Of a stretch of DNA of 64,000 bases, positions 33,025-57,003 are shown piece after piece; positions within the stretch are counted from its first letter, which is position 1, and every line of letters begins with the position of its first letter. The stretch is from contig JBBINQ010000005.1 in NCBI GenBank assembly GCA_037443805.1, positions 9,607 to 73,606 of the forward strand, given 5' to 3'. The position numbers and the translations under genes are program-made. The notes beneath the pieces are model-generated. The model was not told the DNA's origin, did not search any database, and worked only from the letters and a program-made list of their open reading frames with translations. The stretch comes from a candidate division WOR-3 bacterium (GTDB lineage Bacteria; Hydrothermota; Tepidihabitantia; SM23-42; JAOAFX01).

Positions 33025-33597
33025 ATGTTTCTGTTAATACTTCTTACAGTATCGCCTCATGTCTTTCTTTCTCCTAATGATGCGATAGAAATTGAGATAT
33101 GGCACCAACCTACGCTCAGCGGTAAATATCTTGTAGATGCGGATACAAGTCTTAATATGCCACTGCTCGGTAAACTTGATATCAAAAACATTCCTGCTGA
33201 TTCATTAGAGAAGATGTTGATTGATGAATTTCACAAATATTATGGTGATGTATTCCTCACCGTGAATATTTATTATCAAATCAGTGTTTTTGGAGAAGTT
33301 AAGTCTCCAGGGAAATATTATTTGAAGAGCAGTGAAAATCTTGCCAACCTTCTGGCAATGGCAGGAGGTCCAACTGCAAATGGTAATTTGGGAAGGATTC
33401 GCATTTTAAACCTGGGTCAGGAAAGGACCGTGAATTTTGAAAAGATACTGAAGCAAGGTAAAAAGATTGAAGAATTAAATTTAAAGCCTGGTGATGTGGT
33501 TATTATTCCAAGAAGATTTATGCCAGCATTACAGGAATGGTCAGTGCTATTCACTATTGGCACTTTGATTATGCAGATTGTGTATTACACGAAATGA
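33025..33597 (+). CDS. wza: Short polysaccharide export protein (Poly_export + SLBB)
   Basis: LSPNDAIEI, MPLLGKL, ISVFGEVKSPGKY, AMAGGPT, LKPGDVVIIP, C-terminal amphipathic helix; no lipobox Cys. Confidence 0.75.
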   Translation: MFLLILLTVSPHVFLSPNDAIEIEIWHQPTLSGKYLVDADTSLNMPLLGKLDIKNIPADSLEKMLIDEFHKYYGDVFLTVNIYYQISVFGEVKSPGKYYLKSSENLANLLAMAGGPTANGNLGRIRILNLGQERTVNFEKILKQGKKIEELNLKPGDVVIIPRRFMPALQEWSVLFTIGTLIMQIVYYTK

Positions 33598-37690: not shown

Positions 37691-38323
37691 ATGGAACAGT
37701 TGAAACAAGGACTTGATGAACTAAAAATAGATTACTCAGATACTATTCTTGAGAAATTTCGTCTTTACTTAGATGCTCTTTTTACTTTTAAAGATAGACT
37801 GCATCTAATTTCACATAAAGATTACACACGTATCAGTGTAAAACATTTTCTTCCTTCTTTAACTGCATTGAAATTTATTGCTAACGAAAAAAAAACCTGT
37901 GATATTGGTGCGGGTGCAGGCTTTCCTTCTGTGCCTTTAAAGATTTTTAAACCCGCGCTTGAACTTACTCTATTTGAATCGGTTAAAAAAAAGGCAGAAT
38001 TTTTAAAATATTTAATTGACAGGCTGGCACTGGATAAAGTTTATGTCGTAAATTGCCGTGCAGAAAATTATGGTAATAACCATTTTGAAATAGTTTTCAT
38101 TCGTGCGGCAGGTAAAATTAAAAAACTGGCACGAACAGTAAATAATCTACTGATACCAGGTGGCAGGGCAATATTTTATAAGTCTCCAGCGATAGAGGCA
38201 GAATTAAATGAGGCAAAAAGGGAGATTGAAAAATACAATTTTGTAGTTTCAATTGAAAGAACTTTGACACCGGTCGTCTATGAACCATTAACTTTGGTGA
38301 TGTTGCAAAAACAAAAAAATTGA
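37691..38323 (+). CDS. rsmG: 16S rRNA m7G527 methyltransferase
   Basis: KHFLPSL, CDIGAGAGFPSVPL, ESVKKKAEFL, RAE, IRA; start placed at ATG 37691. Confidence 0.88.
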   Translation: MEQLKQGLDELKIDYSDTILEKFRLYLDALFTFKDRLHLISHKDYTRISVKHFLPSLTALKFIANEKKTCDIGAGAGFPSVPLKIFKPALELTLFESVKKKAEFLKYLIDRLALDKVYVVNCRAENYGNNHFEIVFIRAAGKIKKLARTVNNLLIPGGRAIFYKSPAIEAELNEAKREIEKYNFVVSIERTLTPVVYEPLTLVMLQKQKN

Positions 38324-39093
38324 TTATGCTTTCTATTATTATTATAAATTTCCGTATGGCAGAAAAACTATATCGTTGTATTGAAAGTATTATCAATACC
38401 CAGGATATGCATAAAATAGAAATAATCGTGGTCAATAAATTATCATCCGACAATGCGCATCATATTGTTAAAACAAAATATCCTCATATAAAGGTGATTG
38501 AATCCAGAAAATTTGGTATTGCGTATATGCGCAATTTGGGTATAAAAGAGGCGTGTGGTGATTATCTGCTATTCCTTGATGCGGATACAATTCTCTTACA
38601 GAATTTAAATCCAGCAATAAAATTTTTACAAGAGCATCCTGAAGCAGGTGGATTGGGTATAAAACTTATTGGTGATGACCATAAATTGCAATACTCTGCC
38701 CGCACTTTTTACGATTTCAAGACCATTATATGGAGACGCACACCACTCAATGTATTATTTCCCAATAGTTCTATAATTAGAAAACATCTTATGATGGATT
38801 GGGCGCACGATAGACCCCTTGTTGTGGACTGGGTGCAGGGTGCTTTTTTATTGATAAAAAGAGCGGCATTGGAACAGATAGGAACCTTTGATGAATTCAG
38901 TCCGTTTGGTTTTGAGGATGTTGCCTGGTGTTATCGTGCAAGTAAAAAAGGCTGGAAGATTTATTACTTTCCGTATATTACTGTAATACATGAATACCAG
39001 CGGAGCAGTGCTTCAGTATTTTCAATACGTGCATTGTACCATTTCTGGGCATTTTTGAGATTCTGTCTCAAATATGGATTTTTCTCAAAATGA
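38320..39093 (+). CDS. GT2 family glycosyltransferase
   Basis: LSIIIIN, NLGI, LLFLDADT (DxD), WVQGAFLLI, GFEDVAWC. Confidence 0.88.
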   Translation: MIMLSIIIINFRMAEKLYRCIESIINTQDMHKIEIIVVNKLSSDNAHHIVKTKYPHIKVIESRKFGIAYMRNLGIKEACGDYLLFLDADTILLQNLNPAIKFLQEHPEAGGLGIKLIGDDHKLQYSARTFYDFKTIIWRRTPLNVLFPNSSIIRKHLMMDWAHDRPLVVDWVQGAFLLIKRAALEQIGTFDEFSPFGFEDVAWCYRASKKGWKIYYFPYITVIHEYQRSSASVFSIRALYHFWAFLRFCLKYGFFSK

Positions 39094-40535
39094 ATGTATA
39101 TTTTTTAATACCACCATCAGGTAATAAGAAACTTGTTCCGGAAAGGGTCTTTGGTTGTAGCTATGGTCTGTATCCAATCCCGAATATTTTTATCCTGACA
39201 TTTGCCAGCATATTAAGAGATGCAGGTCATCAGGTTGAAATCATTGATGCACCGATTATGCAAATGGGCTTAAAAAAATTTTATAATTATCTATCAACCA
39301 GGACCGATTGCTGCTTTATATTTTACAGTGTTAATCTCTCAACCGCGAATGATAATAATAGTGCGAGAATACTTAGAAGCCAGGCTCCTGAAGCGCCGAT
39401 AATCTTCTGTGGCCCTGCGCCAACCTATCAGCCAGAAAGATTCATTTTTGATAAAAAGACTTTTGTTGCACGGGGTGAGGCAGATTGGACGCTTCGGGAA
39501 CTGGTTTCCTATCTTGCCGGGAACTCTCAGAATTCTTTGGATGCGATTAAGGGTATTTCTTATTTTCGTAAAGGTATAGTCATTGATAATCCAATGCGGG
39601 AATTGATAAAGGATTTGGATGAACTTCCATTCCCGGCACGGGATTTGCTCGCGCGCGATAAATACTACAATCCTAAATTAAAAGAACGCCCATTTACCGC
39701 AATGTTAACTTCTCGTGGTTGTCCATATCAATGTTCTTTCTGCGTTCCCTGTTCCCTCAACTTTGCAAGGAAGATAGAATTTCAGAAGTGTTATGGAACC
39801 GATAAAATTCCTCCAGTAGCATTTGCATCGCCGGCTCGGGTTATCTCAGAATTTGAATTACTCAAAAAACAAGGATACAGAACAGTGAGCATTATTGATG
39901 ATGAATTTTTGTTGAAACCGGAAAGAGTAATGGAAATTTGTAATGGGATAAAAAAACTGGGTATAAAATGGGGCTGCCTGGCAAGGGCAGACCACCTGAA
40001 TAATGAAGACCTCATTCAAACGATGGCTGAGGCAGGCTGCCAGTATATAGATATTGGTGTAGAATCATTCAATCAAAGGATTCTTGATGATGTAAAAAAG
40101 AAACTTGATGTATCTGTTATCCCCAGGGCAGTGCAATTATTAAAAAAACATAGGATTGAGCCAAAACTGAATATCCTTGTCGCTGCATCGCCTCTGGAAA
40201 CAGAACAGACAATAAAAGAGACAATAAACAGAGCATTTTCATTGAAGCCAGGGCTCATAATGTTAAATATCTGCACGCCTTTTCCCGGGACTGAACTTTA
40301 TAATCAAGCATTAAAAAACCATTGGTTTGTGGAGAAAGACTATTATCCAGCCGATGTTCAAAAGGAATCAGTCATTCAGTATCCCCATTTAAAGAAAGAA
40401 ACAATAGAAAAGATTGTGGCCCAGGCAAACAGAAAATTTTTTTCCCAGCCATATTTTATCCTTGCTCACTTAAAATTGGGTTTGAATTTTAAAAATATGG
40501 TTAATGCCCTGAAAAGTCTTTTAAAAAAATTTTAA
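39090..40535 (+). CDS. Cobalamin-binding-domain radical SAM protein
   Basis: B12-binding N-terminus (VEIIDA, CGPAPT, RGEAD), TSRGCPYQCSFC, IIDDEF, IGVES, PFPGTEL. Confidence 0.88.
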   Translation: MNVYFLIPPSGNKKLVPERVFGCSYGLYPIPNIFILTFASILRDAGHQVEIIDAPIMQMGLKKFYNYLSTRTDCCFIFYSVNLSTANDNNSARILRSQAPEAPIIFCGPAPTYQPERFIFDKKTFVARGEADWTLRELVSYLAGNSQNSLDAIKGISYFRKGIVIDNPMRELIKDLDELPFPARDLLARDKYYNPKLKERPFTAMLTSRGCPYQCSFCVPCSLNFARKIEFQKCYGTDKIPPVAFASPARVISEFELLKKQGYRTVSIIDDEFLLKPERVMEICNGIKKLGIKWGCLARADHLNNEDLIQTMAEAGCQYIDIGVESFNQRILDDVKKKLDVSVIPRAVQLLKKHRIEPKLNILVAASPLETEQTIKETINRAFSLKPGLIMLNICTPFPGTELYNQALKNHWFVEKDYYPADVQKESVIQYPHLKKETIEKIVAQANRKFFSQPYFILAHLKLGLNFKNMVNALKSLLKKF

Positions 40536-40545: not shown

Positions 40546-40573
40546 TTGACATTGTAATTATTTTAGATAAAAT
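40546..40573 (+). promoter_or_regulatory. Promoter for DUF6754 operon (TTGACA-N16-TAAAAT), probably leaderless
   Basis: ATG 40580 lies 6 nt downstream; no SD. Confidence 0.65.
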
Positions 40574-40579: not shown

Positions 40580-41662
40580 ATGTTTTTATTACTCTTCATT
40601 ATTAATATATATGCGATAGATTTACGGGCATTTGACACACCAAATGATGATGGTTCAGGTATTACTATTAATTGGCAAACTTACCAGAATTATCAAACCT
40701 TTGCTATCTACAGAAGCACTGAACCATCGGGCATTTTTGAAAAGATTGGTGAAGTGGAGGGTTCAGAAAATAGATTCCTGGATACAAATATTAAAACAGG
40801 ACAGGAATATTATTATAAATTAAATGCAAGGCAGGACACGCTTATAGATTCTTCCCGGGTGGTTGGACCAATAAAGTCTCAGGTGCAGTATTTTAATACT
40901 GCACGCCTTCCTATGGCAATCTGCATAATTATACTTTTTGCTGCCATTCTTTTTTATATCAGTCAGGCGAAAAAAAGGGGAAGATTGTTTATCAGAAAGA
41001 TTCCTGCACTCAATGCAGTTGAAGAGGCGATTGGCAGGGCAACAGAGATGGGCAAGCCCGTGCTTTATGTTCCGGGCATAATGGATATTGACGACCCTCA
41101 GACCATTGCCTCAATGAGTATCCTTTCAAGGGTTGCAGAAAAGACTGCAGAATATGGCACACCGCTCTATGTTCCAACGAGTCGCTCAATGGCTATGACC
41201 ATGGCGCAACAGGTGGTCAAAGAGGCAGCAACCAGGGTAGGCCGTCCTGACTGGTATAATATTGATAATATCCGATATATTACGGATGACCAGTTTGCCT
41301 ATGTATCTGCAGTTGATGGTATTATGGTGCGGGAAAAACCAGCGACGAATCTTTATTTAGGAACATTTTATGCAGAGTCATTAATTCTTGCGGAAACCGG
41401 TCATTCTACAGGTGCAATTCAGATTGCAGGCACTGCAATGCCTGACCAGTTGCCATTCTTTGTTGCAGCGTGTGATTATACACTTTTAGGTGAAGAACTA
41501 TATGCAGCAAGTGCCTATCTCTCACAAGAACCAGTCCAGTTAGGCTCACTAAAAGGCCAGGACCTCGGCAAGTTGATCTTTATTGGTGTGATCATTATTG
41601 GTGTGCTATGCCAGATTTTTTCCTATCAGTTTTTCATTAACCTTTTTAATACGATAGAATGA
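40580..41662 (+). CDS. FN3 + DUF6754-domain membrane protein
   Basis: Signal-like N-terminus, FN3 (DTPNDDGSGITINW...YYYKL), TM, then GRATEMGKPV, QIAGT, FFVAACDYTLLGEELYAASAYLS, C-terminal TM. DUF name from recall. Confidence 0.72.
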   Translation: MFLLLFIINIYAIDLRAFDTPNDDGSGITINWQTYQNYQTFAIYRSTEPSGIFEKIGEVEGSENRFLDTNIKTGQEYYYKLNARQDTLIDSSRVVGPIKSQVQYFNTARLPMAICIIILFAAILFYISQAKKRGRLFIRKIPALNAVEEAIGRATEMGKPVLYVPGIMDIDDPQTIASMSILSRVAEKTAEYGTPLYVPTSRSMAMTMAQQVVKEAATRVGRPDWYNIDNIRYITDDQFAYVSAVDGIMVREKPATNLYLGTFYAESLILAETGHSTGAIQIAGTAMPDQLPFFVAACDYTLLGEELYAASAYLSQEPVQLGSLKGQDLGKLIFIGVIIIGVLCQIFSYQFFINLFNTIE

Positions 41663-42282
41663 AGACGATAATACCTTTAATAATTGTTTTTGCATGTGGA
41701 TTTTATATGTTAATTACATTTTTTATTCCAGCACGATTTGCCCAAGCCAGTTCTCAAACACTCCAGAATTGGTATCTGGGTGTTATAGCATTTTTTGTAT
41801 TTATTGGTATATTTAATCTTATTAGAATCAATGTGGATAAAATTCAGCGGCGTTTAAGAGATTGGCAATACAGTTTTATTTTATTGTTTTTTTTGGGAGT
41901 GATGTTAGGAGCAGGATTTATTGGTGGTAGAGATTCACGGATATTTTTATATTTCTTTGAAAATTTTCAGGTGCCGCTGGGCGCCACTATGTTTTCTCTC
42001 TTGGCATTCTTTGTTGCCTCGGCGTCATTCCGTGCATTCCGTGCGAAAACACCAGAGGCGACATTGTTGTTGATCGCGGCAGTGGTCGTGATGATTGGCA
42101 GGATCCCTATTGGTTATTTAATATGGCACGGTTTTCCTGACCTGGTAGAATGGATTATGCAGGTTCCGAATACTGCAGCAAAGCGTGGCATTCTCTTCGG
42201 TATTGATTTAGGGCTGATCTCTATGGCATTGCGCGTGCTCCTGGGTATTGAAAGAAGTTATATGGGAGGAGCCCGTGAATAA
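41659..42282 (+). CDS. Polytopic membrane protein (about 6 TM), subunit of DUF6754 cluster
   Basis: ATMFSLLAFFVASASFRAFRA, PNTAAKRGILFG, RVLLGIER; ATGA overlap with the upstream gene. Confidence 0.75.
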   Translation: MKTIIPLIIVFACGFYMLITFFIPARFAQASSQTLQNWYLGVIAFFVFIGIFNLIRINVDKIQRRLRDWQYSFILLFFLGVMLGAGFIGGRDSRIFLYFFENFQVPLGATMFSLLAFFVASASFRAFRAKTPEATLLLIAAVVVMIGRIPIGYLIWHGFPDLVEWIMQVPNTAAKRGILFGIDLGLISMALRVLLGIERSYMGGARE

Positions 42283-42303
42283 AATATTTATCAGGGTTAT
42301 TAT

Positions 42304-43125
42304 ATGAATCTTATTGAACGCTTGAGCAAATTAGATAGAAGGATTATTTTTCTGCTTGTCGCACTGGCAGTCATTATCCCGATGCTTGTGCCACTTAATC
42401 TACCTGTGGATATTACAAAACCAGTAAAAAATGTCTATCAAAAGATTGAATCTCTACCTGAAGGTTCAGTAGTGCTCATTTCTACAGATTATGACCCGGG
42501 TAGTGAGGCAGAACTCTATCCAGCGACCGAGGCAGTGATTGAACATTGTTTTCACAAGAATTTAAAGATATATATGATGGGTCTATGGCCAGCTGGCAGT
42601 GAATTGGGTAATGTGGCTTTAAATCAGATTGCCCAAATATATAATAAAAAATATGGTGAGGATTATATAAATGTGGGTTATCGGCCGGGTGGTGCAATTA
42701 TGCTCTTGAGTTTAGGCCGTAATTTTGCTGATGTAATAAAGGTTGATTATCAGGGTGTCCCTATTGATTCATTCCCCTTAGGAAAGAAAGTAAAATCGGC
42801 AAAAGATCTGGGCCTGGTTATGACCTTTTCTGCTGGAGACCCTGGTATATTACACTGGATAATCTATTTCCATGCCCGCTATGGTATTCCAATCTGCGGT
42901 GCGACCACTGCAATTATGGCACCGCAACAGTATGCATATTTAAGTTCTGGACAGCTGGTTGGACTTTTAGGTGGACTAAAGGGTGCAGCAGAATATGAGA
43001 CCCTTGTGAATAAAAAGGGCAGGGGGTTAAGGGGAATGGATGCACAGTCTATTGTTCATCTTCTGCTTGTCGGATTCATTGTTCTTGGTAATGTGATACT
43101 GGTCTATCAGCGGAGGAAAAAATGA
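42304..43125 (+). CDS. Membrane-anchored alpha/beta-domain protein (DUF6754-related)
   Basis: N- and C-terminal TMs, DYDPGSEAELYP, YGEDYINVGY, GQLVGLLGGLKGAAEYE. Confidence 0.7.
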   Translation: MNLIERLSKLDRRIIFLLVALAVIIPMLVPLNLPVDITKPVKNVYQKIESLPEGSVVLISTDYDPGSEAELYPATEAVIEHCFHKNLKIYMMGLWPAGSELGNVALNQIAQIYNKKYGEDYINVGYRPGGAIMLLSLGRNFADVIKVDYQGVPIDSFPLGKKVKSAKDLGLVMTFSAGDPGILHWIIYFHARYGIPICGATTAIMAPQQYAYLSSGQLVGLLGGLKGAAEYETLVNKKGRGLRGMDAQSIVHLLLVGFIVLGNVILVYQRRKK

Positions 43126-43739
43126 TAAATACCTTAGGAATATGGATTGCCGCAGTCTTAACCCTTGCCATATACTCATTCTTGTATAAGGATAATCCAT
43201 TCTATAAAATTGCGGAAAATATCTTTGTTGGTGTCTCTGCTGGCTATTGGGCAGTTGTTCTATGGTTTGATTTTGCCTGGCCCAATTTATTTGAGCCTCT
43301 GTTCTACCGGGGCCAGTGGTATAATATCTTTCCTGTATTTATTGGACTTTTGATGTTTGCACCACTCATTCCCAAAATCTCCTGGATGATACGCATTCCC
43401 CTGACATTCACGATGGGCATTTCTATGGCTGTCTTTATAACTCAGATTGTTCAGGGTGACATCTTTCCCCAGTTGCAGGCAACATTCTTGCCTCTAAAAG
43501 ATGTCCCTGCTTTTACTATATTTTCCAATCTTTTGATTATCATTGGTGTAATCTTCACGCTTATCTATTTCTATTTTTCTAAAGAGCACAAAGGACCATT
43601 AGGTATTTTTGCCAGGATTGGTATCTGGTTTATGATGGTTTCATTCGGTGCTTCGTTCGGATACACAATTATGGCTCGTGTATCACTATTTATCGGTAGG
43701 GTATATTTTTTGCTACATAACTGGTTGGGAGTGATATAG
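43122..43739 (+). CDS. Polytopic membrane protein (about 6 TM), subunit of DUF6754 cluster
   Basis: SFLYKDNPFYKIAENIFVGVSAGY, YFYFSKEHKG, FGASFGYTIMAR. Confidence 0.75.
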   Translation: MINTLGIWIAAVLTLAIYSFLYKDNPFYKIAENIFVGVSAGYWAVVLWFDFAWPNLFEPLFYRGQWYNIFPVFIGLLMFAPLIPKISWMIRIPLTFTMGISMAVFITQIVQGDIFPQLQATFLPLKDVPAFTIFSNLLIIIGVIFTLIYFYFSKEHKGPLGIFARIGIWFMMVSFGASFGYTIMARVSLFIGRVYFLLHNWLGVI

Positions 43740-44576
43740 ATGGCTGATTTTGAGATTAATTTAAAGGAATTTAATCTTTCTGATATACTACAATTTCTTA
43801 CTTACTTGAAAAAAAGCGGTGTGGTCAGAGTAAGCGGTGAATTGAATGGTGAGATATATCTAAGAGATGGCAATATTGTGCATGCAACCGATGGCACAGA
43901 AAAAGGATTTGAATCATTGCTCAATCTTTCCCTGGTCAATCTTGAACGGGCAGTTTTTGAAGCAGGAATAAAGGCGACCGAACACACAATTTCTGAGGAT
44001 GTGGGAAAATTGACCGAAACTATTGAAAGGCGAAGGATTGAATTTGAGCAGATTAAGGAACATTTGCCACCACGCGATGCAGTGCTTGCAAAATCAACAA
44101 AAGAATTACCGAGTGCGGTTGCCCTGCGCCGAACTGACTGGCAGGTTCTGGCAATGGTTGATGGCAAAAGGACCATTAATGAAATTATTGCCCAGTCAAA
44201 ATTGGGTGGATATGAAACCATAAAGACCATTATCTGGCTAAAAGAACAAGGTTTGATTTACGACCCGAGGGAAGCAGAGAGATTAATGGCTGGTTTGATT
44301 CATTATTTAAATGCATTTTTTAAAATTTTTGGCAAACATGGTTTGAATTGGTTCAGAAGATGGTGCGAGCAAAATTCGCAAGAACAAGCATTGAGCTCGG
44401 CACTGAAGGTAAATGAAGATACCTTTGAGATTGTTGTGCAGAATCCAATGTCCCAGGAGCAGATTGATGAGTTCAGAAAAAAGTTTGATAAGTTTATTGA
44501 TACAGAAGGTCCTCTGGTCTATGGAAAATTACTGTTCAAGAAAAAACTTGAAGAGTTCCGTGCCGAATTGAAATAG
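43740..44576 (+). CDS. DUF4388 (PATAN-like) + winged-helix domain protein
   Basis: FEINLKEFNLSDILQFL..LKKSGVVRV..GEIYLRDGNIVHA; wHTH-like DWQVLAMVDGKRTINEII...LKEQGLI; ATG directly follows the upstream TAG. Confidence 0.78.
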   Translation: MADFEINLKEFNLSDILQFLTYLKKSGVVRVSGELNGEIYLRDGNIVHATDGTEKGFESLLNLSLVNLERAVFEAGIKATEHTISEDVGKLTETIERRRIEFEQIKEHLPPRDAVLAKSTKELPSAVALRRTDWQVLAMVDGKRTINEIIAQSKLGGYETIKTIIWLKEQGLIYDPREAERLMAGLIHYLNAFFKIFGKHGLNWFRRWCEQNSQEQALSSALKVNEDTFEIVVQNPMSQEQIDEFRKKFDKFIDTEGPLVYGKLLFKKKLEEFRAELK

Positions 44577-44589
44577 AAAGGAGTGGTGA

Positions 44590-45375
44590 ATGGAGATATT
44601 GGATAAGATACCAGGCGTAATAAATTATGCTGTGGTCAATGCCGAGGATGGCTCAATTGAGAAGATAAAAGGTTCGTCAACTTCACCGATTGGTGACCTC
44701 ACTGCATTCTTCTCCTCGGCAGCAGAGGTGATAAAAAATACGCTGGGACTGGGTGAAATAAATTTTGTATCACTCTGTTACGGCGCAAATCGTTTGATAA
44801 TATTTATTCATAATAATAAGTATCTTGGTATTGAAGTAGAGCGAGAGGCAAAACCCTCTGAGGTGATTGAAAAGATAAAGGCTCAGTTGTCTTTGATTGG
44901 AGAAGAGAAAAAAGAGGTGGTGATAGAAGAGAAAAAGGAAGAAGTAGAAGAAAAGGTCGTGGAAAAAGAAGAGCGACCAGAGGTTCAGGTTGTTGAGGAG
45001 AAAGTAGTTGAAGAGGTTAAACCAGCCCCGGCTCCAGTCAAAGAAGAGATTAAATTACCAAGGAGCATCGGTTCAAAATTGATGCAGATAAATCTGTTGA
45101 TTGATGAATTTGGAAGCGGTGGTAAAAAGGCACACTGGCTTGATATTCTAAATCAAGGTCTGGGCGTAATTGCCACAGATATTCTGCCCATTGTTGGTAT
45201 CATTGGTGAAAAAATGGAATTCAAACAGAATCCACCTCTGGAAAAAGAAGATGACATTGTTCAGATACTGAGAACACTGATTGATTTTCTGGTCAAAAAA
45301 GCAGTGGAAGAAATAGGTTCTTCTCAGGCACGGGTAAAAGTTCAGGCAGTCATTGAAAAGATGAAACAATTGTGA
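44590..45375 (+). CDS. Roadblock/LC7-like domain + E/K/V-rich linker + C-terminal helical domain
   Basis: About 100-aa alpha-beta domain (KIPGVINYAVVNAEDG...LIIFIHNNKYLGIEV), low-complexity linker EEKKEVVIEEKKEEVEEKVVEKEE. Confidence 0.6.
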   Translation: MEILDKIPGVINYAVVNAEDGSIEKIKGSSTSPIGDLTAFFSSAAEVIKNTLGLGEINFVSLCYGANRLIIFIHNNKYLGIEVEREAKPSEVIEKIKAQLSLIGEEKKEVVIEEKKEEVEEKVVEKEERPEVQVVEEKVVEEVKPAPAPVKEEIKLPRSIGSKLMQINLLIDEFGSGGKKAHWLDILNQGLGVIATDILPIVGIIGEKMEFKQNPPLEKEDDIVQILRTLIDFLVKKAVEEIGSSQARVKVQAVIEKMKQL

Positions 45376-45379
45376 GGGG

Positions 45380-45976
45380 GTGAATGCTATGAATGAAGAA
45401 ATATTGAATAAGATTGAGGAGCGTGGTCTGGGTCTACCTTTTGTTGTAAAAAAAGATGGCGAGACCATTACTTCGCATAGTGGAGAAACAAATAAAGCAA
45501 AGTTTTCTCAAACTGGCACTGTTCTATTTGAATCTATTGGCGCAGTGGGTGGAATAAAGATTGATGTCATTGAAATTGTAGGAAGTAATCAGAGCCTGCT
45601 CTGCGATATTTCTGAAGAAGAGTTGATCGGGCACATCTATGCGACATCCCAGATGTCCATACTTGATAATATCTGGAATGCGATAAAAGATATAAGGGCA
45701 AAACAAAAAGAAGAGGTTGTTGAAGTAGAGAAACCCAAAGAGAAATTTGCACCTGAATTTCTTGAGCAATTGAAGGCGATTGTCCAGGATTATCTTGGTG
45801 ATTTTACAGAAAGGGTTTATCAGAATCAACTCAAAGCACAGCGCATAAAGATTGAAGAACTTTATGAAGAGGATCTGAGAAGGTTCATCTTTGCACTTGG
45901 CAAGGCAGCGGGAATGATTATTGGTCCGACAAAAGGTAAGGATTTGACCAACAAACTTCTTGCAAAATTAAAATGA
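45380..45976 (+). CDS. Roadblock/LC7-like domain + helical C-terminal domain
   Basis: Beta-hairpin/helix pattern FVVKKDGETIT...VLFESIGAVG...IEIVGSNQSLL; start could be 45389. Confidence 0.5.
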   Translation: MNAMNEEILNKIEERGLGLPFVVKKDGETITSHSGETNKAKFSQTGTVLFESIGAVGGIKIDVIEIVGSNQSLLCDISEEELIGHIYATSQMSILDNIWNAIKDIRAKQKEEVVEVEKPKEKFAPEFLEQLKAIVQDYLGDFTERVYQNQLKAQRIKIEELYEEDLRRFIFALGKAAGMIIGPTKGKDLTNKLLAKLK

Positions 45977-46074
45977 TAAGATATAATCAGTATCAGAGAT
46001 GGAAATTTGAAATCTGGAATCTCATTAGAATTTCTATAACCGGATTTGGAACTTAAAAAAATATAGGAGGTTCT

Positions 46075-46443
46075 ATGTCCTTAATATTATTTTCTGCACC
46101 ATTCGGGATAGAAGAGTCAACCTATCAGGCACTGGCAATAATCCCGAACTATGTGCTGGTAGTTGGTGCAATTTTATTATGGCTCGCCTTCATTTTTTTG
46201 GGAATCATTGCGCGCCGTTATGAAATTGTGCTCGGTGAAAAGACCAACTGGCAGTTTATGGTTATTGCACCCACAGGTATTTTGCTCTTTGCTTTGATCC
46301 AATTGATATTTTGCGGAATAGGCGGCAAGATGATGTTGCCCAAAGGCGGTATAAATTATCTTGCATATGGCTTATTCTTTCTCTCAGGAATTCTCTCGGT
46401 TGTGGCAAACTTAAAATTTTATGGAGTCACTAAGGGAAAATAG
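46075..46443 (+). CDS. Small 3-TM membrane protein
   Basis: SD AGGAGG; three hydrophobic helices; LGIIARRYEIVLGEKTNWQF. Confidence 0.72.
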   Translation: MSLILFSAPFGIEESTYQALAIIPNYVLVVGAILLWLAFIFLGIIARRYEIVLGEKTNWQFMVIAPTGILLFALIQLIFCGIGGKMMLPKGGINYLAYGLFFLSGILSVVANLKFYGVTKGK

Positions 46444-46452
46444 GGAGGTTTT

Positions 46453-46803
46453 ATGAGGGCAGATTTAATTGCGGAAATTATTTTTATTGTGGCAATATTG
46501 CTTGCCATTATTTCGCTTATCATCTTCGGCCTTATCTTGAAGAGGCTCCTCAATTTAATAGGTGGAAAGGGCATCTGGGTCTTTCCTTTGATTGGCTGTC
46601 TATTTCTGGTCGCAATGGCGGTATTCCATTTATATCGTATTATCTTCTACTTTCCGCTCTTGAGCGTTGCTGGTCCAGGCGACCTTTTTGATTTAATCAT
46701 TGGTTCTCTTGCCCTTGCTCGGTATGAAAGTTTTCTCTTTCTTGGTGCCGGTCTTTTCCCATTGATTGGTGGGATACTTTATTATAGTGCAAGTTCAAAA
46801 TGA
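46453..46803 (+). CDS. Small 3-TM membrane protein, probable paralog of 46075-46443
   Basis: SD GGGAGG; FGLILKRLLNLIGGKGIWVF aligns by eye with the neighbour. Confidence 0.72.
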   Translation: MRADLIAEIIFIVAILLAIISLIIFGLILKRLLNLIGGKGIWVFPLIGCLFLVAMAVFHLYRIIFYFPLLSVAGPGDLFDLIIGSLALARYESFLFLGAGLFPLIGGILYYSASSK

Positions 46804-46806: not shown

Positions 46807-46834
46807 TTGACATTTTCCATAAAATAATTATAAT
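46807..46834 (+). promoter_or_regulatory. exbB operon promoter (TTGACA-N16-TATAAT)
   Basis: Both hexamers perfect; SD AAAGGAGG before ATG 46862. Confidence 0.8.
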
Positions 46835-46861: not shown

Positions 46862-47485
46862 ATGATCAGGGAATTTTCTATTGGCGGTGGTGTGATGTGG
46901 TTGTTATTGATTTGTATCATTTTAGCATTGGGCATTGTTCTTGAGCGTCTTTTTTCTCTTTTAATAAAAATAAGACTGAATCCAAAGAGTTTTTTGGAGA
47001 AACTTATTTCAACGATTGATGCCCAGGGTCTTGATGCAGGTATAGCTTTATGTGACCAGACAGCTTCACCCGCAGCAAAGATTGCCAAAGTGATATTAGA
47101 AAAAGGAGATAAAGGCAAGGATGCAATGGAAGAGGTGGCGGCGCGTGCTGCCGCAATTGAACTCGCTTTTTTAGATAGAGGAATGGCGCTACTGGCGGGT
47201 TTGACCACGGTTGCCCCATTTCTTGGATTCTTAGGAACAGTAACAGGTATGATTCGTGCATTTGCAGCAATTGCTATGGCAGGCGAGGTTGAGCCTACAA
47301 TTGTTGCCAGTGGTATTTCTGAGGCATTGATCACAACCAAATGGGGTTTGATCATTGCAACTCCACTCGCTATTCTCCATATTCTCTTTACGGGTAAAGT
47401 GGATGGGTATACAAAAGATATGGAAGAAGTTGCTGCGGGTTTGATTGATTATATGATTGAGCATTATCCCAAAAGGAAAAAATAG
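46862..47485 (+). CDS. exbB: MotA/TolQ/ExbB proton channel protein
   Basis: APFLGFLGTVTGMIRAF, GISEALITTKWGLIIA. Confidence 0.92.
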   Translation: MIREFSIGGGVMWLLLICIILALGIVLERLFSLLIKIRLNPKSFLEKLISTIDAQGLDAGIALCDQTASPAAKIAKVILEKGDKGKDAMEEVAARAAAIELAFLDRGMALLAGLTTVAPFLGFLGTVTGMIRAFAAIAMAGEVEPTIVASGISEALITTKWGLIIATPLAILHILFTGKVDGYTKDMEEVAAGLIDYMIEHYPKRKK

Positions 47486-47950
47486 ATGGAATTGAGGCAA
47501 AAGAAAAAATATCAAGCCGCTATTCCTACTGCCTCAATGGGTGATATTGCATTTTTGATCATCATTTTCTTTATGACCACAACTGTTTTTACCAGGGAAA
47601 AAGGTATCAAGATGCTTCTACCTGAAAAAACCGAGACTGAGACCAAGGTCAAACCAGAGAATGTTGTTTCAATTCTGATAAATCCTGAAGGTGCATTAAA
47701 ACTGAGGGCAACGGGTTATGATGGAATTGACATATCTCCCCAGCAATATAGTGAAGTGCGAAGAATCGTTGAAGAAAAGCTCTTAGAAAGGGATACTTTA
47801 CTCGTAGTCTCCTTGAAAACGAGTAAAGATGCCCAATACCAGGCAATGATAGGAGTGCTTGACCAGATAAAGCTCGCAAAAGTGGTCACCCAGGATGGCA
47901 GAGAATTAAAGGCAAATAAAATAAGTCTTATCCCAACGAGTGAGGAATAA
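47486..47950 (+). CDS. exbD: ExbD/TolR family protein
   Basis: IPTASMGDIAFLIIIFFMTTTVF with conserved Asp. Confidence 0.9.
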   Translation: MELRQKKKYQAAIPTASMGDIAFLIIIFFMTTTVFTREKGIKMLLPEKTETETKVKPENVVSILINPEGALKLRATGYDGIDISPQQYSEVRRIVEEKLLERDTLLVVSLKTSKDAQYQAMIGVLDQIKLAKVVTQDGRELKANKISLIPTSEE

Positions 47951-48366
47951 TGCGTAAAAGTATTATCAGAAGGTTTACCAGAACACCTGAAATTCCTACT
48001 GCCTCAACTGCTGATGTTGCCTTTCTTTTAATACTTTTCTTTATGGTCACTACGGTGTTCAGGGCAACTTCCCTTAATCTAAAGATTGTGCTGCCCAAGG
48101 CAAAGTCTACAGAAAGGATTCTTATCCGCAGGAATATTACCCATATCTGGGTTGATAATAATGGTCGTGTATTTATTGATGATAGCCTTGTTCCCAAGGA
48201 ACGGGTCAGTTCAAAGATATCGCCCAAGGTTGCGGAAAATCCTGAGCTGGTTACAATCTTAAATATCCATAGCGATATTGAATATGGCACAGTAGATGTG
48301 ATACTTGACCAATTAAAAGAGTCCCGGGCATTTAAGATTACATTTGCTACAGAATTTGGAGGATGA
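47950..48366 (+). CDS. exbD: Second ExbD/TolR family protein
   Basis: IPTASTADVAFLLILFFMVTTVF; LPKA. Confidence 0.9.
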   Translation: MRKSIIRRFTRTPEIPTASTADVAFLLILFFMVTTVFRATSLNLKIVLPKAKSTERILIRRNITHIWVDNNGRVFIDDSLVPKERVSSKISPKVAENPELVTILNIHSDIEYGTVDVILDQLKESRAFKITFATEFGG

Positions 48367-48367
48367 G

Positions 48368-48976
48368 ATGCGTGACCATAAATTGATGTATGGGGTATAT
48401 TTCCGCACAGGAATGTTTATCGGTATAATTTTGTTGATTCTACTATTTCTGTTCTTGCCCTATGCTGAGGTAGAACCTTATAAATTGAGAAAAGAGGTTG
48501 TGACAATGGTGGAAGAGATTTCTGCGGAGATTGAAAAGTATGAAGAACCTCCACCAGTGGAGAGGCCAAAGGTTGCGGTTGCTGCTGCTCCATCTGAAGT
48601 TACTGAGGAGGCGGTTGAGACCATTGCCGCAACTGAATTTCGGGAGGATATCATTAGAACCCAGCCCACGGGTCCGGAAATAGAGATTGTTCCTTATTTT
48701 AAGGTAGAGGTAAAACCACAACCTATCTCAATGCCTGCACCAGAATGGCCCGAACTTGTAAAAAGAGCAGGCATTGAAGGTAGTCTACAAGTGAAGTTTT
48801 TGGTGAATGTTGATGGCACTGTTATGGATGTCCAGATTGTGAAATCCAGCGGTAATCAGTTACTTGATGAGGCAGCAGTGGCGAGTGTATGGAAATATAG
48901 ATTTACTCCGGCAAAACAGCGTGATAAACTCGTAAGGGTATGGGTCTTTAGAAAAATAGAATTTAAATTTAAGTAA
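48368..48976 (+). CDS. tonB: Energy transducer TonB
   Basis: TM anchor, Pro-rich linker EEPPPVERP, TonB_C GIEGSLQVKFLVNVDG...LDEAAVASVWKYRFTPA; start ATG 48368. Confidence 0.9.
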   Translation: MRDHKLMYGVYFRTGMFIGIILLILLFLFLPYAEVEPYKLRKEVVTMVEEISAEIEKYEEPPPVERPKVAVAAAPSEVTEEAVETIAATEFREDIIRTQPTGPEIEIVPYFKVEVKPQPISMPAPEWPELVKRAGIEGSLQVKFLVNVDGTVMDVQIVKSSGNQLLDEAAVASVWKYRFTPAKQRDKLVRVWVFRKIEFKFK

Positions 48977-48982: not shown

Positions 48983-49010
48983 TTGACAATTTTTATTTTT
49001 TTAATATAAT
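48983..49010 (+). promoter_or_regulatory. Promoter of lipoprotein-TBDR-PorV operon (TTGACA-N16-TATAAT)
   Basis: Both hexamers perfect; about 75-nt leader with two SD-like motifs. Confidence 0.78.
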
Positions 49011-49087: not shown

Positions 49088-50122
49088 ATGATAAGGCTGA
49101 AATGGCTAAGTCTATTAGCAATTTTAACATTGGTGTTTGTAAGTTGTGGTAATGAACCACCAGAGGAGTTCTATAATGGAACACCACAGGACGATACATT
49201 GATTAATGCATTGCTTGATGCGAATTCTGAATATCTTATAACCGATGATTTATTTTTAGATACGTATAGCCGGATTGATTCGTTTGTAGTAAGCTTCCCA
49301 GTAGCAGATTCATATTTTAAAACAGAATCAATTCTGGTTAAACAACATCTGGATAGTTTGAGTGAAAAAATCGCATCAAGTGCTCGTTTTAAGGACCTCT
49401 GGTATACCAAAGATACTACCTGCACAGTGTATCTCTTTGATACATTTAACATAATACAGGAGGTCCATTATGACCGATTATACAAAGGTTATTATTTCTG
49501 GCAGGGCGATACATCCAAGAAACTGGATACAGTGATCGTTGAAGCCACTTCAGGTTATTATTCTTATGATACAATAACTGTAGAGGGGCTTCGCCATATT
49601 TATGTTGAACCAGTAAAAGAAAGGGTTTGGGATGAGGAACTTCAGGATTCGGTCTGGAAGATAAAAGAGCCAAGAGAATGGATTTTGAAGAGAATTTCCT
49701 ATGGAAACTATGGATTGCCAAATCGGGGCGCAGGAATTCCTGAGATCGATTACGCTATAGTAACTTCTAATAATACCTCAAAAGTTGATACCATCTGGGC
49801 ATCAAATACAGATACTCTCTATCAACATCATGCAATGAACCGTTTCTGCGCAATAGATTCGCTGTTAGAATATGATGCGGGTGATACTTTGACAATTTCA
49901 CTGACCCTTTCCGGAACAATTACAAGTGACCTCTGCTCATTCTTTGCCATTCAGGATGGTAAGAAAGTTCAACTTATTGGTGGTTCAGGTAAGATTGCCA
50001 TTACTGGTTCTGGCGTGAAAAATCTTGTATTTGTGGCGATTGTCAACGATGGATTATGCTATGTAAAGCCTGCCAGCCCATTACTTGCAAGATTCTGGCT
50101 TATACCCATAAGGGTTAATTGA
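49088..50122 (+). CDS. Hypothetical lipoprotein (344 aa)
   Basis: Lipobox VFVSC; SD AAGGAGG; beta-rich, many DT/DS motifs. Confidence 0.75.
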   Translation: MIRLKWLSLLAILTLVFVSCGNEPPEEFYNGTPQDDTLINALLDANSEYLITDDLFLDTYSRIDSFVVSFPVADSYFKTESILVKQHLDSLSEKIASSARFKDLWYTKDTTCTVYLFDTFNIIQEVHYDRLYKGYYFWQGDTSKKLDTVIVEATSGYYSYDTITVEGLRHIYVEPVKERVWDEELQDSVWKIKEPREWILKRISYGNYGLPNRGAGIPEIDYAIVTSNNTSKVDTIWASNTDTLYQHHAMNRFCAIDSLLEYDAGDTLTISLTLSGTITSDLCSFFAIQDGKKVQLIGGSGKIAITGSGVKNLVFVAIVNDGLCYVKPASPLLARFWLIPIRVN

Positions 50123-50133
50123 GGAGGTGTATA

Positions 50134-52902
50134 ATGAAAAAATTATTGGCGTTAATCCTTACCACTGCATTTTTGTTCGGTGCAGAGTATGGTAAAATTA
50201 CTGGTAAGGTGAGGGACGCTGAAACCGGTGAACCATTGATCGGTGCTGATGTGATTGTAGAAGGAACAGAACTTGGTGCCGCAACAGATGAAAAGGGTGA
50301 TTATGTGATTCTCTATGTTCCTGCAGGAACCTATGTGGTTACCGCATCATATTTAGGTTATGACCCATATACTTATACCCAGGTGATTGTCAATGCTGAC
50401 CAGACTACAAATCTCAATTTCAGATTAAAACCTACAGTAATTGAAGTAGAAAAGGTTACGGTTGTTGCTGAAAAACCACCAATTGTTGCCTCCCAGGTCC
50501 AGAGTGGACATTCAGTTACATCGCAAGATATATCCCGTCTACCCGTGACCACAATCAACCAGGTGGTTACCCTCCAGGCAGGCGTATCCACATCAAATCT
50601 TGGTACACATATTCGTGGTGGCAGGCCCGAAGAGGTAACTTATTATGTGGATGGTATTATGACCAAGGTTCCACACACAGGTGCGCAATCAACCCAGATA
50701 AATGCCTCAGCAGTAGAAGAGGTAACAGTTGTCAGTGGTGGTTTTGATGCAGAATATGGTGAAGCACTTTCAGGAATTATCAATGTTGTGACCAAAGAGG
50801 GTGGAACAAAACCATCAGGTAGCTTTAGGTACTTGACCGATGAGGTATTTGCAATGGATGCGCTCAAAGACAAACTGAATACTGGTTATAATTTCTATGA
50901 CCTATCACTGGGTGGTCCTTTACCTGCTTTGTCCAGATTGAAATATTTCCTCTCTGGTGAATTAACATTGACAGATGCTTATGCAGAGGCATTATATAAG
51001 GTTCCTTCACCAAGGAATACATATCGTGCTCAGGGCAGATTCTCCTATACAATGCCCAATAATAAAGGTAAGATTACCTTGAGTGGATTTAATTCAAGGG
51101 ACCAGTATGTGACCTGGTCATCAGGAAATTTAAAATACTTCCAGAATAGACCAATGAGCAGGACCAAGAACTATATTCTCTCTTCCACATTCAATTATAT
51201 GCTCACGGCAAAGACCCTTTTGACAGTTAAGGGCGGTATGACACACTATGATAGAGTATATGGCAACCGTGATTATGCCTGGGAAGATTCTGCGGGTCAT
51301 GGGTGGTATGACGATTATCGTTTCAAAGCAGAACATTGCATAAAGTATCTTACTAAAGATTTACTTCCGCCCAAGGATGTTATCGTGGATAGTGTAATGC
51401 AATACCATACTGAGTATACAAACCGTGATGTGGATGCATTACGCAACAATCCCTATGGCGTTGAAGGTATGTATTATACCTATGGCGACTATCGTGTATG
51501 GAGATACTGGCAGAATGATGATATCCAGGCAAGGTTTGACCTTTCCCATGCAGTGGGTAAGGTTCATGAATTCAAAACTGGTGTTGACTATGTAGGATAC
51601 AACCTGAAATATTATGATAATAACCTTCCCTGGGTCACGAATCCATTCTGGGATTATTATGAGCGACAGCCCTATAAGGTTGCAGCGTATGTTCAGGACA
51701 AAATGGATTTTGAAGGTTTGATTGCACGGCTTGGACTGAGATTTGATTATTTTGACCCCAAGAGTTGTACCTACAAAGTTCCAAATGACCCAAGGAATGA
51801 TACCCTTGCATATGCAGACAAGAGTTATCGTGTTTCTCCGCGTATTGGTTTTTCTCTACCAGTTACTGAACGGATGAAATTCCGTTTCAATTATGGACAT
51901 TATTTCCAGTTACCCGCACTTGATGATATGTTCAGCACAACTGATACAGCAGTGATAAGGCTTGCACTCTCTCGCGGTAATACAATTATAGGAAATATCT
52001 TTATGAAGCCAGAAAAGACTGTGCAGTATGAGGTCGGTATTGAAAATCAGTTCACACAGGATGTAGTAATGGGATTTACTGCGTATTTCAAAGATGTGTA
52101 TGACCTGTCTCAGATTCGTGAAGTTATTGCATTGCCAATGCCATACTTCCAGTTCTTTAATGTTGACTACGGAAATATCAAAGGATTTGAAATAAGGTTA
52201 GATAAGACAATGTCCAATATGTGGGCATTTGGTCTCAGTTATACGCTCCAGTTTGCCAAAGGGACTGCCTCTTACGCAGGTGAGTTCTATTATGACTTCT
52301 ATTATGGTGGTACTGACCCGATTACTGGATTACCATTACAGCCACCAGTAATTGATTACTGGCTTGATTTTGATGAACGGAATATCGTGAATGCGAACCT
52401 GGACCTCCAACTGCCTTCTGATTTTGTTTTCATCCCATTGCAGGATTTAAACTCATCATTTGTATTCTCATACCATTCAGGCCATCCATACACGCCCCTT
52501 GACCTGAGAGGAAATAAGACAGGTGATGAGAATTCTGCAAGGATGCCTGGTTGGTGGAATGTTGATATGAATGCAAGTAGATTGATAAAGATTGGTCCAG
52601 TAAAATTCACCTTAACCGCACTCGTTAATAATCTCTTTAATTCAAGACAAATAGTAGAGGTATATCAGACATCTGGTGACCCTGATGACCATGGTGACCC
52701 AGAACCTACCCTGACTCAGTTTGGAACCCTGACCATTGGTTCAAGTCGCTATTCGCCACAGGCTGATTATAATCATGATGGTATTATGACACCACCTGAG
52801 CAGAAAAAAGCTTATATTGCAGCAAGAACCGATTATTATCTTGACCCAACAAATTATAATGGTCCATTCAGGGTTCAGATCGGTATTGGTTTAGGATTTT
52901 AG
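50134..52902 (+). CDS. TonB-dependent outer-membrane receptor with N-terminal carboxypeptidase-regulatory-like domain
   Basis: GKITGKVRDAETGEPLIGADV, plug IRGGRPEEVTYYVDG, GGFDAEYGEALSGIINVVTKEG, MKPEKTVQYEVG, C-terminal QIGIGLGF; start ATG 50134. Confidence 0.9.
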   Translation: MKKLLALILTTAFLFGAEYGKITGKVRDAETGEPLIGADVIVEGTELGAATDEKGDYVILYVPAGTYVVTASYLGYDPYTYTQVIVNADQTTNLNFRLKPTVIEVEKVTVVAEKPPIVASQVQSGHSVTSQDISRLPVTTINQVVTLQAGVSTSNLGTHIRGGRPEEVTYYVDGIMTKVPHTGAQSTQINASAVEEVTVVSGGFDAEYGEALSGIINVVTKEGGTKPSGSFRYLTDEVFAMDALKDKLNTGYNFYDLSLGGPLPALSRLKYFLSGELTLTDAYAEALYKVPSPRNTYRAQGRFSYTMPNNKGKITLSGFNSRDQYVTWSSGNLKYFQNRPMSRTKNYILSSTFNYMLTAKTLLTVKGGMTHYDRVYGNRDYAWEDSAGHGWYDDYRFKAEHCIKYLTKDLLPPKDVIVDSVMQYHTEYTNRDVDALRNNPYGVEGMYYTYGDYRVWRYWQNDDIQARFDLSHAVGKVHEFKTGVDYVGYNLKYYDNNLPWVTNPFWDYYERQPYKVAAYVQDKMDFEGLIARLGLRFDYFDPKSCTYKVPNDPRNDTLAYADKSYRVSPRIGFSLPVTERMKFRFNYGHYFQLPALDDMFSTTDTAVIRLALSRGNTIIGNIFMKPEKTVQYEVGIENQFTQDVVMGFTAYFKDVYDLSQIREVIALPMPYFQFFNVDYGNIKGFEIRLDKTMSNMWAFGLSYTLQFAKGTASYAGEFYYDFYYGGTDPITGLPLQPPVIDYWLDFDERNIVNANLDLQLPSDFVFIPLQDLNSSFVFSYHSGHPYTPLDLRGNKTGDENSARMPGWWNVDMNASRLIKIGPVKFTLTALVNNLFNSRQIVEVYQTSGDPDDHGDPEPTLTQFGTLTIGSSRYSPQADYNHDGIMTPPEQKKAYIAARTDYYLDPTNYNGPFRVQIGIGLGF

Positions 52903-55869: not shown

Positions 55870-55878
55870 GAGGCAAAA

Positions 55879-56991: not shown

Positions 56992-57003
56992 GAAAGAAAA
57001 ATA

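Follow-up and report, generated by a model that had tools for sequence, protein, structure and literature searches.

While following up a sequence-only reading of a 64,000-nucleotide (nt) stretch of a candidate division WOR-3 genome (contig JBBINQ010000005.1; the whole stretch is called the window here, and positions are counted from its first letter), we analyzed four consecutive genes encoding membrane proteins, named A, B, C, and D. The sequence-only reading had described them as four genes with two ATGA junctions behind their own promoter, and all of this was recovered from the open reading frame (ORF) list, the sequence, and a promoter scan. Near-identical proteins carry WOR-3 source names, in keeping with this origin. 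The four products add up to 1045 residues. ATGA overlaps join A to B at 41659-41662 and C to D at 43122-43125, and B and C are separated by 21 nt. A gap of 6 nt separates the end of the promoter-like site from the start codon of A, and the mRNA may therefore have little or no leader. Within 38-50.5 kb, only two sites match the consensus better, both of them perfectly, and the three near-perfect sites fall exactly in the three intergenic gaps of the gene row. Since the two perfect sites sit in the next two gaps downstream, the scan appears to mark real transcription starts.

The four genes travel together. A pattern scan with one genome per species returned at least 596 relatives of A, from which 79 genome loci were retained. 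They come from about 10 candidate phyla and carry the labels Zixibacteria, Coatesbacteria, WOR-3, Stahlbacteria, Aegiribacteria, Fermentibacteria, Cloacimonadota, Ignavibacteria, Eisenbacteria, and Edwardsbacteria, with a few metagenome-assembled genomes (MAGs) of other phyla. Where the contig extends far enough, the four genes nearly always stand in the order A-B-C-D on one strand, and 92 A-to-B, 84 B-to-C, and 82 C-to-D adjacencies were counted. With start sites placed close to where the alignments begin, the median distance between adjacent genes is about 10 nt, and overlaps of 4 nt or 1 nt are frequent. The co-occurrence across genomes that the sequence-only reading had proposed to look for is thus seen as an A-B-C-D order in nearly all 79 loci. 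Compared with the window proteins, homologues across phyla are 45-55% (A), 39-58% (B), 31-56% (C), and 41-56% (D) identical.

In Zixibacteria-type genomes, the whole ABCD module is tandemly repeated two or three times, giving 26 D-to-A adjacencies. Such arrays were found in ten loci (for example, locus L075, 4269-14700). The last copy of the array is a subfamily of its own that holds the same array position across genomes, and core identity between copies is 56-77%; judged from their sequences, the tandem copies are ancient paralogues. The four genes are evidently translationally coupled and co-inherited as a block, and their products very probably form one new membrane complex.

Only A could be placed in known families, and it belongs to two. 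Its residues 101-355 match positions 2-256 of the 257-position DUF6754 model (PF20539) with 394.6 bits (E = 2e-118), compared with a gathering score of 27 bits. DUF6754 is a catalogue entry without known function; a literature search found no paper mentioning it, and a broader search gave nothing relevant. The second family is fibronectin type III (FN3). A profile of the A homologues matched titin FN3 domains among the PDB sequences (E = 1.4e-19), and in an AlphaFold2 model residues 13-99 form a beta-sandwich whose strands have predicted local distance difference test scores (pLDDT) of 88-95. A Foldseek search with this model was dominated by FN3 matches, among them neogenin and titin FN3 domains at a root mean square deviation of 2-3 Å.

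Hydropathy averaged across homologues gives A the following layout: a signal-like N terminus (residues 1-12), the FN3 domain (~13-99), a first transmembrane (TM) helix (~107-132), the DUF6754 domain, and a second TM helix (~327-356). The N terminus is short, hydrophobic, and of signal type, and the homologues have longer N termini with Lys or Arg. From the signal-type N terminus, and from TM1 being followed by the positively charged AKKRGRLFIRK, the FN3 domain is predicted to be exported and the DUF6754 domain (~195 residues) to lie on the cytoplasmic face.

The DUF6754 domain has two parts. Residues 142-244 form an α/β unit in the AlphaFold2 model (pLDDT of 63-91). Residues 245-327 are acidic, helical, and nearly invariant, and they are the most conserved stretch of the protein, with E266, E272, Q281, Q290, P292, F293, F294, C298, D299, E305, and E306 invariant. 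A GRATEMGKP segment in A was considered as a P-loop and rejected, since it has G-x5-GK-P spacing and sits at a helix end rather than in a β1-α1 loop.

DUF6754 proteins make up 2198 clusters at 50% identity. In all of the best 150 representatives the domain is C-terminal, and the region ahead of it spans 0 to about 1000 amino acids (aa). In ten long representatives, this N-terminal region contains FN3 repeats, a PQQ_2/BamB-like propeller stretch, or no Pfam family. The few distant representatives with a source name are MAGs (WOR-3, unclassified "bacterium", and one "Planctomycetota"), and no cultured isolate was among those sampled.

C was modelled with high confidence (AlphaFold2 pLDDT of 91.8; predicted template modelling score of 0.88). 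The model has a TM helix at residues 12-28, a six-strand Rossmann-like α/β domain at 39-234, and a long second TM helix at 240-272, in which His252 and Asn263 are invariant. Conserved acidic residues of the domain are D62, D64, E70, D120, D148, E230, and E232, and there is a DYDP..E motif. Foldseek against the PDB gave a best E value of 1.8e-3 and TM-scores of at most 0.36, with a mixture of GT-B halves, short-chain dehydrogenases/reductases (SDRs), alcohol-dehydrogenase Rossmann domains, and a universal stress protein. As modelled, the fold is generic Rossmann-like and gives no family assignment; C had no Pfam, NCBIfam, or PDB-sequence profile match. We considered C as a GT-B glycosyltransferase and rejected this, because it has a single α/β domain and no Pfam glycosyltransferase match and because the weak matches to GT-B enzymes (E of at least 2.8e-3) are no better than those to SDRs, alcohol dehydrogenases, or the universal stress protein. 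Four Lys or Arg residues ahead of TM1, a DRR flank among them, and QRRKK behind TM2 predict that the C domain lies on the periplasmic face.

B and D are both polytopic with about six TM helices each. In the 68 B homologues, loops assigned to the inside carry 9.4 Lys plus Arg and those assigned to the outside carry 3.9, so that B is clearly predicted to have both termini in the cytoplasm. The corresponding values for D are 4.6 and 5.7, a bias that is not decisive and leans weakly toward an N-out orientation. Conserved in B are a cytoplasmic loop, SASYRAFRAR, and a tail, GIERSYLGG; conserved in D are the motifs FLYKDNPFYKFAEH and FGASFGYTVMAR.

The protein types and orientations agree with the sequence-only reading, which had two polytopic proteins alternating with two TM-anchored α/β proteins (A and C being bitopic), the domain of A in the cytoplasm behind a KKRGR flank, and that of C in the periplasm. 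Charge distribution and hydropathy argue strongly for about 16 TM helices in each A:B:C:D set, about 12 of them from B and D, and for one α/β domain on each membrane face, the DUF6754 domain of A in the cytoplasm and the Rossmann-like domain of C in the periplasm.

Neither B nor D belongs to a Pfam or NCBIfam family, and profile searches of PDB sequences gave zero matches. We ran hmmscan against Pfam at E values up to 1 on every homologue of B (68), C, and D (54). B matched TMD0_ABC in 29 of the 68 homologues (best E = 8.7e-05); these matches are sub-threshold, cover the helix bundle, and were judged compositional. ABC2_membrane was hit by 3 of the 68 at an E of ~0.01, and ABC2_membrane_3 matches to B were also sub-threshold. 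An ABC transporter, including the ABC-2/GldFG-like kind, was rejected, since neither the operon nor the conserved block has an ABC_tran gene and the B matches are sub-threshold. At the level of sequence profiles, the MFS, APC, RND/SecDF, TRAP, IT, and PTS-EIIC families were rejected as well, with no recurrent match to a transporter family in the B and D homologues and no match among PDB sequences. A stator of the MotA/ExbB/TolQ-ExbD/TolR kind was rejected because A to D have no PF01618 or PF02472 match, while genuine ExbB and ExbD proteins nearby were found easily; A to D also have no invariant TM Asp across homologues. Among 963 neighborhood ORFs, the best non-self match of the A-domain hidden Markov model (HMM) was ExbB, over ExbB residues ~149-219, in three loci (for example, L009, 14249-15079); at an E of ~0.1 it is non-significant and was treated as chance. 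No nucleotide-binding or redox-cofactor motif was found in A to D. The sequence-only reading's proposal of an undescribed multi-subunit membrane system is well founded in these respects, with B, C, and D outside every Pfam, NCBIfam, and PDB family searched and DUF6754 absent from the literature found. Its more specific reading as a transporter or transmembrane signalling channel is possible. As far as sequence-profile searches reach, ABCD lies outside every known kind, and a distant relationship could still emerge.

The sequence-only reading had further proposed related domains on opposite faces of the membrane. The opposite faces are supported by the charged flanks, and the relatedness is not supported. 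BLASTP found nothing between A and C or between B and D. When family profiles were compared with hhalign, A and C aligned only over a TM helix (probability of 8%) and B and D gave nothing (0.4%). A low-stringency hhalign of the A and C domains did give a collinear alignment of 169 columns, at E = 0.15 and a probability of 0.4%, and cross-family hmmsearch showed no enrichment. Both domains start α-β-α-β-α-β with similar element lengths in the AlphaFold2 models, and a loosely similar stretch precedes the last TM helix (AASAYLS..P.QLGSLKG in A and YPYL..GQL.GLLGGMKG in C). This is no more than any two Rossmann-like domains would give.

An architectural idea follows on from the arrangement, namely, that (A,B) and (C,D) are ancient duplicates inserted oppositely to form a pseudo-two-fold antiparallel assembly, like the inverted repeats of transporters. 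It would account for a "TM - α/β domain - TM" protein being followed twice by an overlapping 6-TM gene of ~205 aa, for the A and C domains facing opposite sides, for B being clearly N-in with D leaning N-out, and for the shared start and the collinear alignment. Nonetheless, we consider it improbable. The BLASTP, hhalign (8%, 0.4%, and 0.4%), hmmsearch, and half-protein comparisons were all non-significant, the charge bias of D is too weak to fix its topology, like element spacing is expected of any two Rossmann-like domains, and the second half of the A domain is modelled at low confidence. The idea concerns architecture and is compatible with any function proposed below.

The transcription unit does not stop at D. 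The stop codon of D (TAG, 43737-43739) directly abuts the ATG of the next gene, and between D and 46807 there is no strong promoter and no convincing terminator. The operon in the WOR-3 window is therefore most likely A to I, 40580-46803 (Table 1), so that the four-gene unit of the sequence-only reading is real as far as it goes and is open at its downstream end, with five more genes likely included. Gene E encodes a DUF4388/PatA_N (PATAN) protein. F to I lie on the same strand as ABCD-E, and their synteny with it is confined to WOR-3 and Stahlbacteria relatives. H and I of the window are 59-75% identical to their counterparts in the WOR-3/Stahlbacteria loci, above the conservation of ABCD within that clade. 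An impression that F and G are Roadblock/LC7-like found no support in Pfam and PDB searches and was dropped.

Table 1. Genes and promoter-like sites of the ABCD region, in window positions
Feature	Position	Strand	Description
Promoter-like site	40546..40573	+	TTGACA-16 nt-TAAAAT; 11/12 matches to TTGACA/TATAAT; promoter scan
Subunit A	40580..41662	+	360 aa; ORF list
Subunit B	41659..42282	+	207 aa; ORF list
Subunit C	42304..43125	+	273 aa; ORF list
Subunit D	43122..43739	+	205 aa; ORF list
Gene E	43740..44576	+	DUF4388/PatA_N (PATAN) protein; Pfam PF14332, E = 1.7e-11
Gene F	44590..45375	+	261 aa, soluble; no Pfam/PDB match
Gene G	45380..45976	+	198 aa, soluble; no Pfam/PDB match
Gene H	46075..46443	+	122 aa, small membrane protein; no Pfam/PDB match
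Gene I	46453..46803	+	116 aa, small membrane protein; no Pfam/PDB match
Promoter-like site	46807..46834	+	12/12; gap before ExbB
ExbB	46862..47485	+	Pfam MotA_ExbB, E = 8.4e-25
ExbD	47486..47950	+	
ExbD (second)	47950..48366	+	
TonB	48344..48976	+	TonB_C, E = 1.2e-19
Promoter-like site	48983..49010	+	12/12; gap before gene at 49088
Uncharacterised protein	49088..50122	+	344 aa
TonB-dependent-type outer-membrane barrel	50119..52902	+	CarboxypepD_reg + Plug + barrel

Beyond B, C, and D, no neighbor of A is universal, and three themes recur: TonB-type systems, PatA_N, and a block with a GlmL-like protein. The first theme is seen in the window itself, where ExbB-ExbD-ExbD-TonB, the 344-aa protein, and a barrel follow A to I. 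The same order, ABCD-E-I and then ExbB-ExbD-ExbD-TonB-344 aa-barrel, is found in four other loci (L006, L007, L020, and L025), and L080/L081 have the WOR-3-type layout without ExbBD. In Fermentibacteria and Aegiribacteria, a homologous barrel comes directly after D and is followed by ExbB-ExbD-TonB. In all, barrel homologues were found downstream of D in L008, L009, L011, L014, L037, L069, L080/L081, and L082 and in five metagenome loci (L084, L088, L089, L099, and L113). Locus L082 has ABCD, a barrel, a secreted M6 peptidase, and a protein with a tail typical of cargo of the type IX secretion system (T9SS). In a Zixibacteria locus (L023), an operon GlmL-cl19-cl4-ExbB is divergent to the ABCD array; here and below, cl labels are our protein clusters.

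The PatA_N/DUF4388 gene stands directly after D in the WOR-3 and Stahlbacteria relatives (the four loci with the window order and L080/L081) and also in L083, and it follows the ABCD arrays of two further loci (L114 and L121). The third theme is an upstream block, cl12-cl8-GlmL-like-cl4, made up of a ~150-aa small membrane protein, a second protein of ~130 aa, a 615-aa GlmL-family protein (Pfam MutL) of the ASKHA fold, and the 375-aa cl4 protein, whose identity across phyla is 53-75% and which matches no Pfam or NCBIfam family. About 19 of the 79 genome loci have the block ahead of A. Loci with the block directly upstream of ABCD include L084 (7337-14500), L014, L042, L099, L105, and L131. In the reverse test, 33 of the 80 metagenome loci seeded with cl4 have the order block-A-B-C-D, about half of those with enough downstream sequence. 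In cl4 loci without ABCD, the block is followed by ExbB/TolQ-ExbD/TolR-TolB or by housekeeping genes (AccA and Era), and LpxB lies upstream. The block is a second uncharacterised system in its own right; no homologue of it lies within the window.

Just upstream of the ABCD promoter (38320-40535), the window has a GT2-like gene and a B12-binding radical SAM gene, the best NCBIfam match of the latter being HpnJ, far under its cutoff. These two genes adjoin ABCD in none of the 79 loci. A riboswitch search of the window and of five loci was negative. A cobalamin link, which the B12-binding radical SAM protein, the GlmL-like neighbor, and the TonB barrel might together suggest, was rejected, since the radical SAM gene is not conserved beside ABCD and there is no cobalamin riboswitch.

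The presence of TonB barrels, ExbB/ExbD/TonB sets, and Tol-Pal genes beside ABCD in several arrangements suggests that it takes part in traffic between the two membranes of the envelope. TonB-dependent uptake loci combine a TonB-dependent transporter (TBDT) and ExbB-ExbD-TonB with a cognate transporter of the cytoplasmic membrane, as in the Fec, Btu, and Sus-type systems. ABCD resembles them in being clustered, on the same strand and in several phyla, with a Plug-and-barrel protein and ExbB/ExbD/TonB, and it resembles their inner-membrane partners in being a polytopic inner-membrane assembly with periplasmic parts. Those partners are ABC importers or MFS and other single-chain permeases, whereas ABCD lacks both an ATPase and a binding-protein gene and shows no homology to those families. 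In the ABC-2 systems of Bacteroidota, GldF is a 6-TM permease and GldG an auxiliary protein whose large periplasmic α/β domain is flanked by an N- and a C-terminal TM helix. The pairing of C, a bitopic subunit with a periplasmic α/β domain, with D, a 6-TM subunit of ~200 aa, is similar, and the range in the FCB group is also shared. However, ABCD has no gene for a GldA-like ATPase and no ABC_transp_aux match, and C is half the size of GldG.

Other systems show more general likenesses. TRAP DctQ/DctM, mannose-PTS IIC/IID, and EmrE-like or DUF606-type pairs share with ABCD small subunits, overlapping genes, the lack of an ATPase, and possibly opposite orientations. There is, however, no sequence or profile similarity, the paired subunits of ABCD are not detectably homologous, and soluble domains bracketed by TM helices, as in ABCD, are not a feature of those families. 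The proton-driven Tol-Pal and ExbB-ExbD (5:2) motors share the genomic association, the inner-membrane location, and the periplasm-facing domains; unlike them, A to D have no MotA_ExbB or ExbD/TolR match and no conserved TM aspartate. The nearest functional analogies would be the inner-membrane partners of TonB-dependent loci and GldFG-like pairs, neither of them homologous to ABCD.

From these contexts, we propose, at low confidence and with a probability of roughly 40%, that ABCD, which forms a protein family of its own, serves in the inner membrane as the module of a route for uptake or trafficking that spans the envelope. ABCD would act alongside a TonB-dependent-type outer-membrane barrel and proton-driven motors of the TonB or Tol type. 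A ligand or partner arriving through the outer membrane would be taken over by the periplasmic parts, namely, the ectodomain of A and the α/β domain of C, and the helix bundle of B and D, closed by the TM hairpins of A and C, would pass the ligand over the inner membrane without ATP. The acidic part of DUF6754 may dock on the arginine-rich cytoplasmic loops of B and so gate or couple the inner face, and the tandem paralogues of the Zixibacteria type could be modules for different ligands. The more specific claim that ABCD is an ATP-independent inner-membrane transporter or transport module, read from gene context, is possible and somewhat doubtful.

A number of observations weigh against a transport role. 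No recurrent known transporter family emerged when the B and D homologues were compared with Pfam, and hhalign of all pairs of halves found no internal or inverted repeats in B and D. There is no clue to a substrate: beside the negative riboswitch search, no periplasmic binding protein is encoded in the operon. The conserved mid-membrane Asp typical of ion-coupled systems is missing, and conservation peaks in a soluble cytoplasmic segment of A and not in the membrane. That segment, residues 245-327, was modelled at a pLDDT of only 30-50, so the model does not capture the structure of the most conserved part; the low values are likely due to a shallow, nearly invariant alignment or to packing against other subunits. 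Nutrient permeases with diversifying substrates are usually less conserved than ABCD, and ectodomains that vary among FN3 and propeller types are found more often where proteins contact one another than where solutes are transported. The commonest neighbor block (cl12-cl8-GlmL-like ATPase-cl4) and PatA_N misfit a simple permease. Finally, neighbors vary between lineages, and the link to TBDTs and ExbBD rests on perhaps four to six independent arrangements.

Several of these points favor the reading that ABCD carries no cargo and is an envelope scaffold or signal transducer, anchoring or regulating Tol-Pal, TonB, or a gliding/T9SS-type machine. The ectodomain of A would then contact periplasmic or outer-membrane partners, and DUF6754 would recruit PatA_N in WOR-3 and elsewhere the GlmL-like actin-fold ATPase and its 375-aa partner. 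The ectodomains are protein-interaction modules in variable number, from FN3 repeats to a BamB-like propeller, and the strongest conservation is in the soluble cytoplasmic segment. PatA_N directly after D in several lineages fits such recruitment, as does the GlmL-like block, which is directly upstream of A in the 33 of 80 cl4-seeded loci and elsewhere beside TolQ-TolR-TolB and LpxB; T9SS cargo and a PorV/FadL-like barrel are encoded downstream in the window. Twelve B/D helices at 40-58% identity across phyla, however, exceed what an anchor needs. PatA_N and the GlmL-like block are missing from many ABCD loci, no known signaling output domain (kinase, GGDEF, or anti-sigma) was found, and the Roadblock-like nature of F and G is unsupported by the Pfam or PDB search. 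We regard this main rival to the uptake or trafficking module as unlikely.

ABCD could also be part of something larger. Tentatively, ABCD may be the membrane core of an unrecognised envelope machine that is widespread in uncultured phyla of the FCB group, is tied to Tol/Exb-type motors and TonB-dependent-type barrels, and has at least eight parts in its fuller form, namely, two small membrane proteins, the 615-aa GlmL-like ATPase, the 375-aa protein, and A to D. Under the same tentative proposal, its core would consist of two "bitopic + 6-TM" pairs, non-homologous or anciently diverged, with their α/β domains facing opposite sides of the membrane, an architecture for which there is no characterised precedent.

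We also weighed an envelope-biogenesis enzyme or flippase, with active sites on the two faces: the cytoplasmic domain of A would modify a lipid-linked intermediate, which B and D would then flip and the periplasmic Rossmann-like domain of C would transfer. The Foldseek matches of C include GT-B Rossmann halves at probabilities of 0.96-0.98 (TreT, LpcC, SdgB, and sucrose-phosphate synthase), but the matches are weak and generic (E of at least 1.8e-3 and TM-score of at most 0.36, with SDRs, alcohol dehydrogenases, and a universal stress protein mixed in), and a lone Rossmann half is no GT-B enzyme. The conserved acidic residues of C, with the DYDP..E motif, and a housekeeping-like degree of conservation would suit an enzyme, yet no subunit has a Pfam glycosyltransferase or flippase signal. 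LpxB lies near some loci, and GT2 and B12-radical-SAM genes lie just upstream in the window, but the latter two are conserved beside ABCD in 0 of 79 loci. Such an enzyme or flippase is quite improbable, and less likely than the scaffold.

That the four proteins form no complex and are merely co-operonic, unrelated membrane proteins is hardly credible: gene order, close spacing, and overlaps persist in about 10 phyla, tandem arrays carry all four genes duplicated as one block, and all four evolve at similar slow rates.

An identity of ~50% across phyla, as all four subunits have, is a level commonly reached by core energy or envelope machinery, yet three of the four are not catalogued as families and no member is known to have been studied. 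The carriers (WOR-3, Zixibacteria, Fermentibacteria, Cloacimonadota, Ignavibacteria, and relatives) are abundant, uncultured anaerobic lineages, and their envelope biology has been inferred almost wholly from Proteobacteria and Bacteroidota. If the proposal is true, a new TonB/Tol-linked complex would fill a gap in the understanding of uptake and trafficking in these diderm cells and may add a new membrane-protein architecture. As the system is small and well conserved, multimer modelling, co-expression, and cryo-electron microscopy are feasible.

Several envelope genes lie downstream of the barrel, at 52909-61384. They include a gene for a 986-aa protein whose end weakly resembles a T9SS C-terminal domain, a gene for a PorV/FadL/UPF0164-like barrel (55879-56991), and genes for two Por_Secre_tail proteins, one with LVIVD repeats and a C39-like peptidase domain (57049-59697) and a second at 59771-61384. 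From the Por_Secre_tail proteins, the PorV-like barrel, and the T9SS C-terminal-domain-like end, the WOR-3 organism appears to have a T9SS.

Elsewhere in the window, 33537-35912 and 3354-9487 encode a Wzz/GNVR tyrosine-kinase-type polysaccharide co-polymerase and two very large tetratricopeptide repeat proteins (801 and 1242 aa), which add to the envelope-related genes of the window. The RNA genes of the window are a bacterial large signal recognition particle RNA (119 bits) and two tRNA genes (14917-15205, 25141-25212, and 25276-25358).

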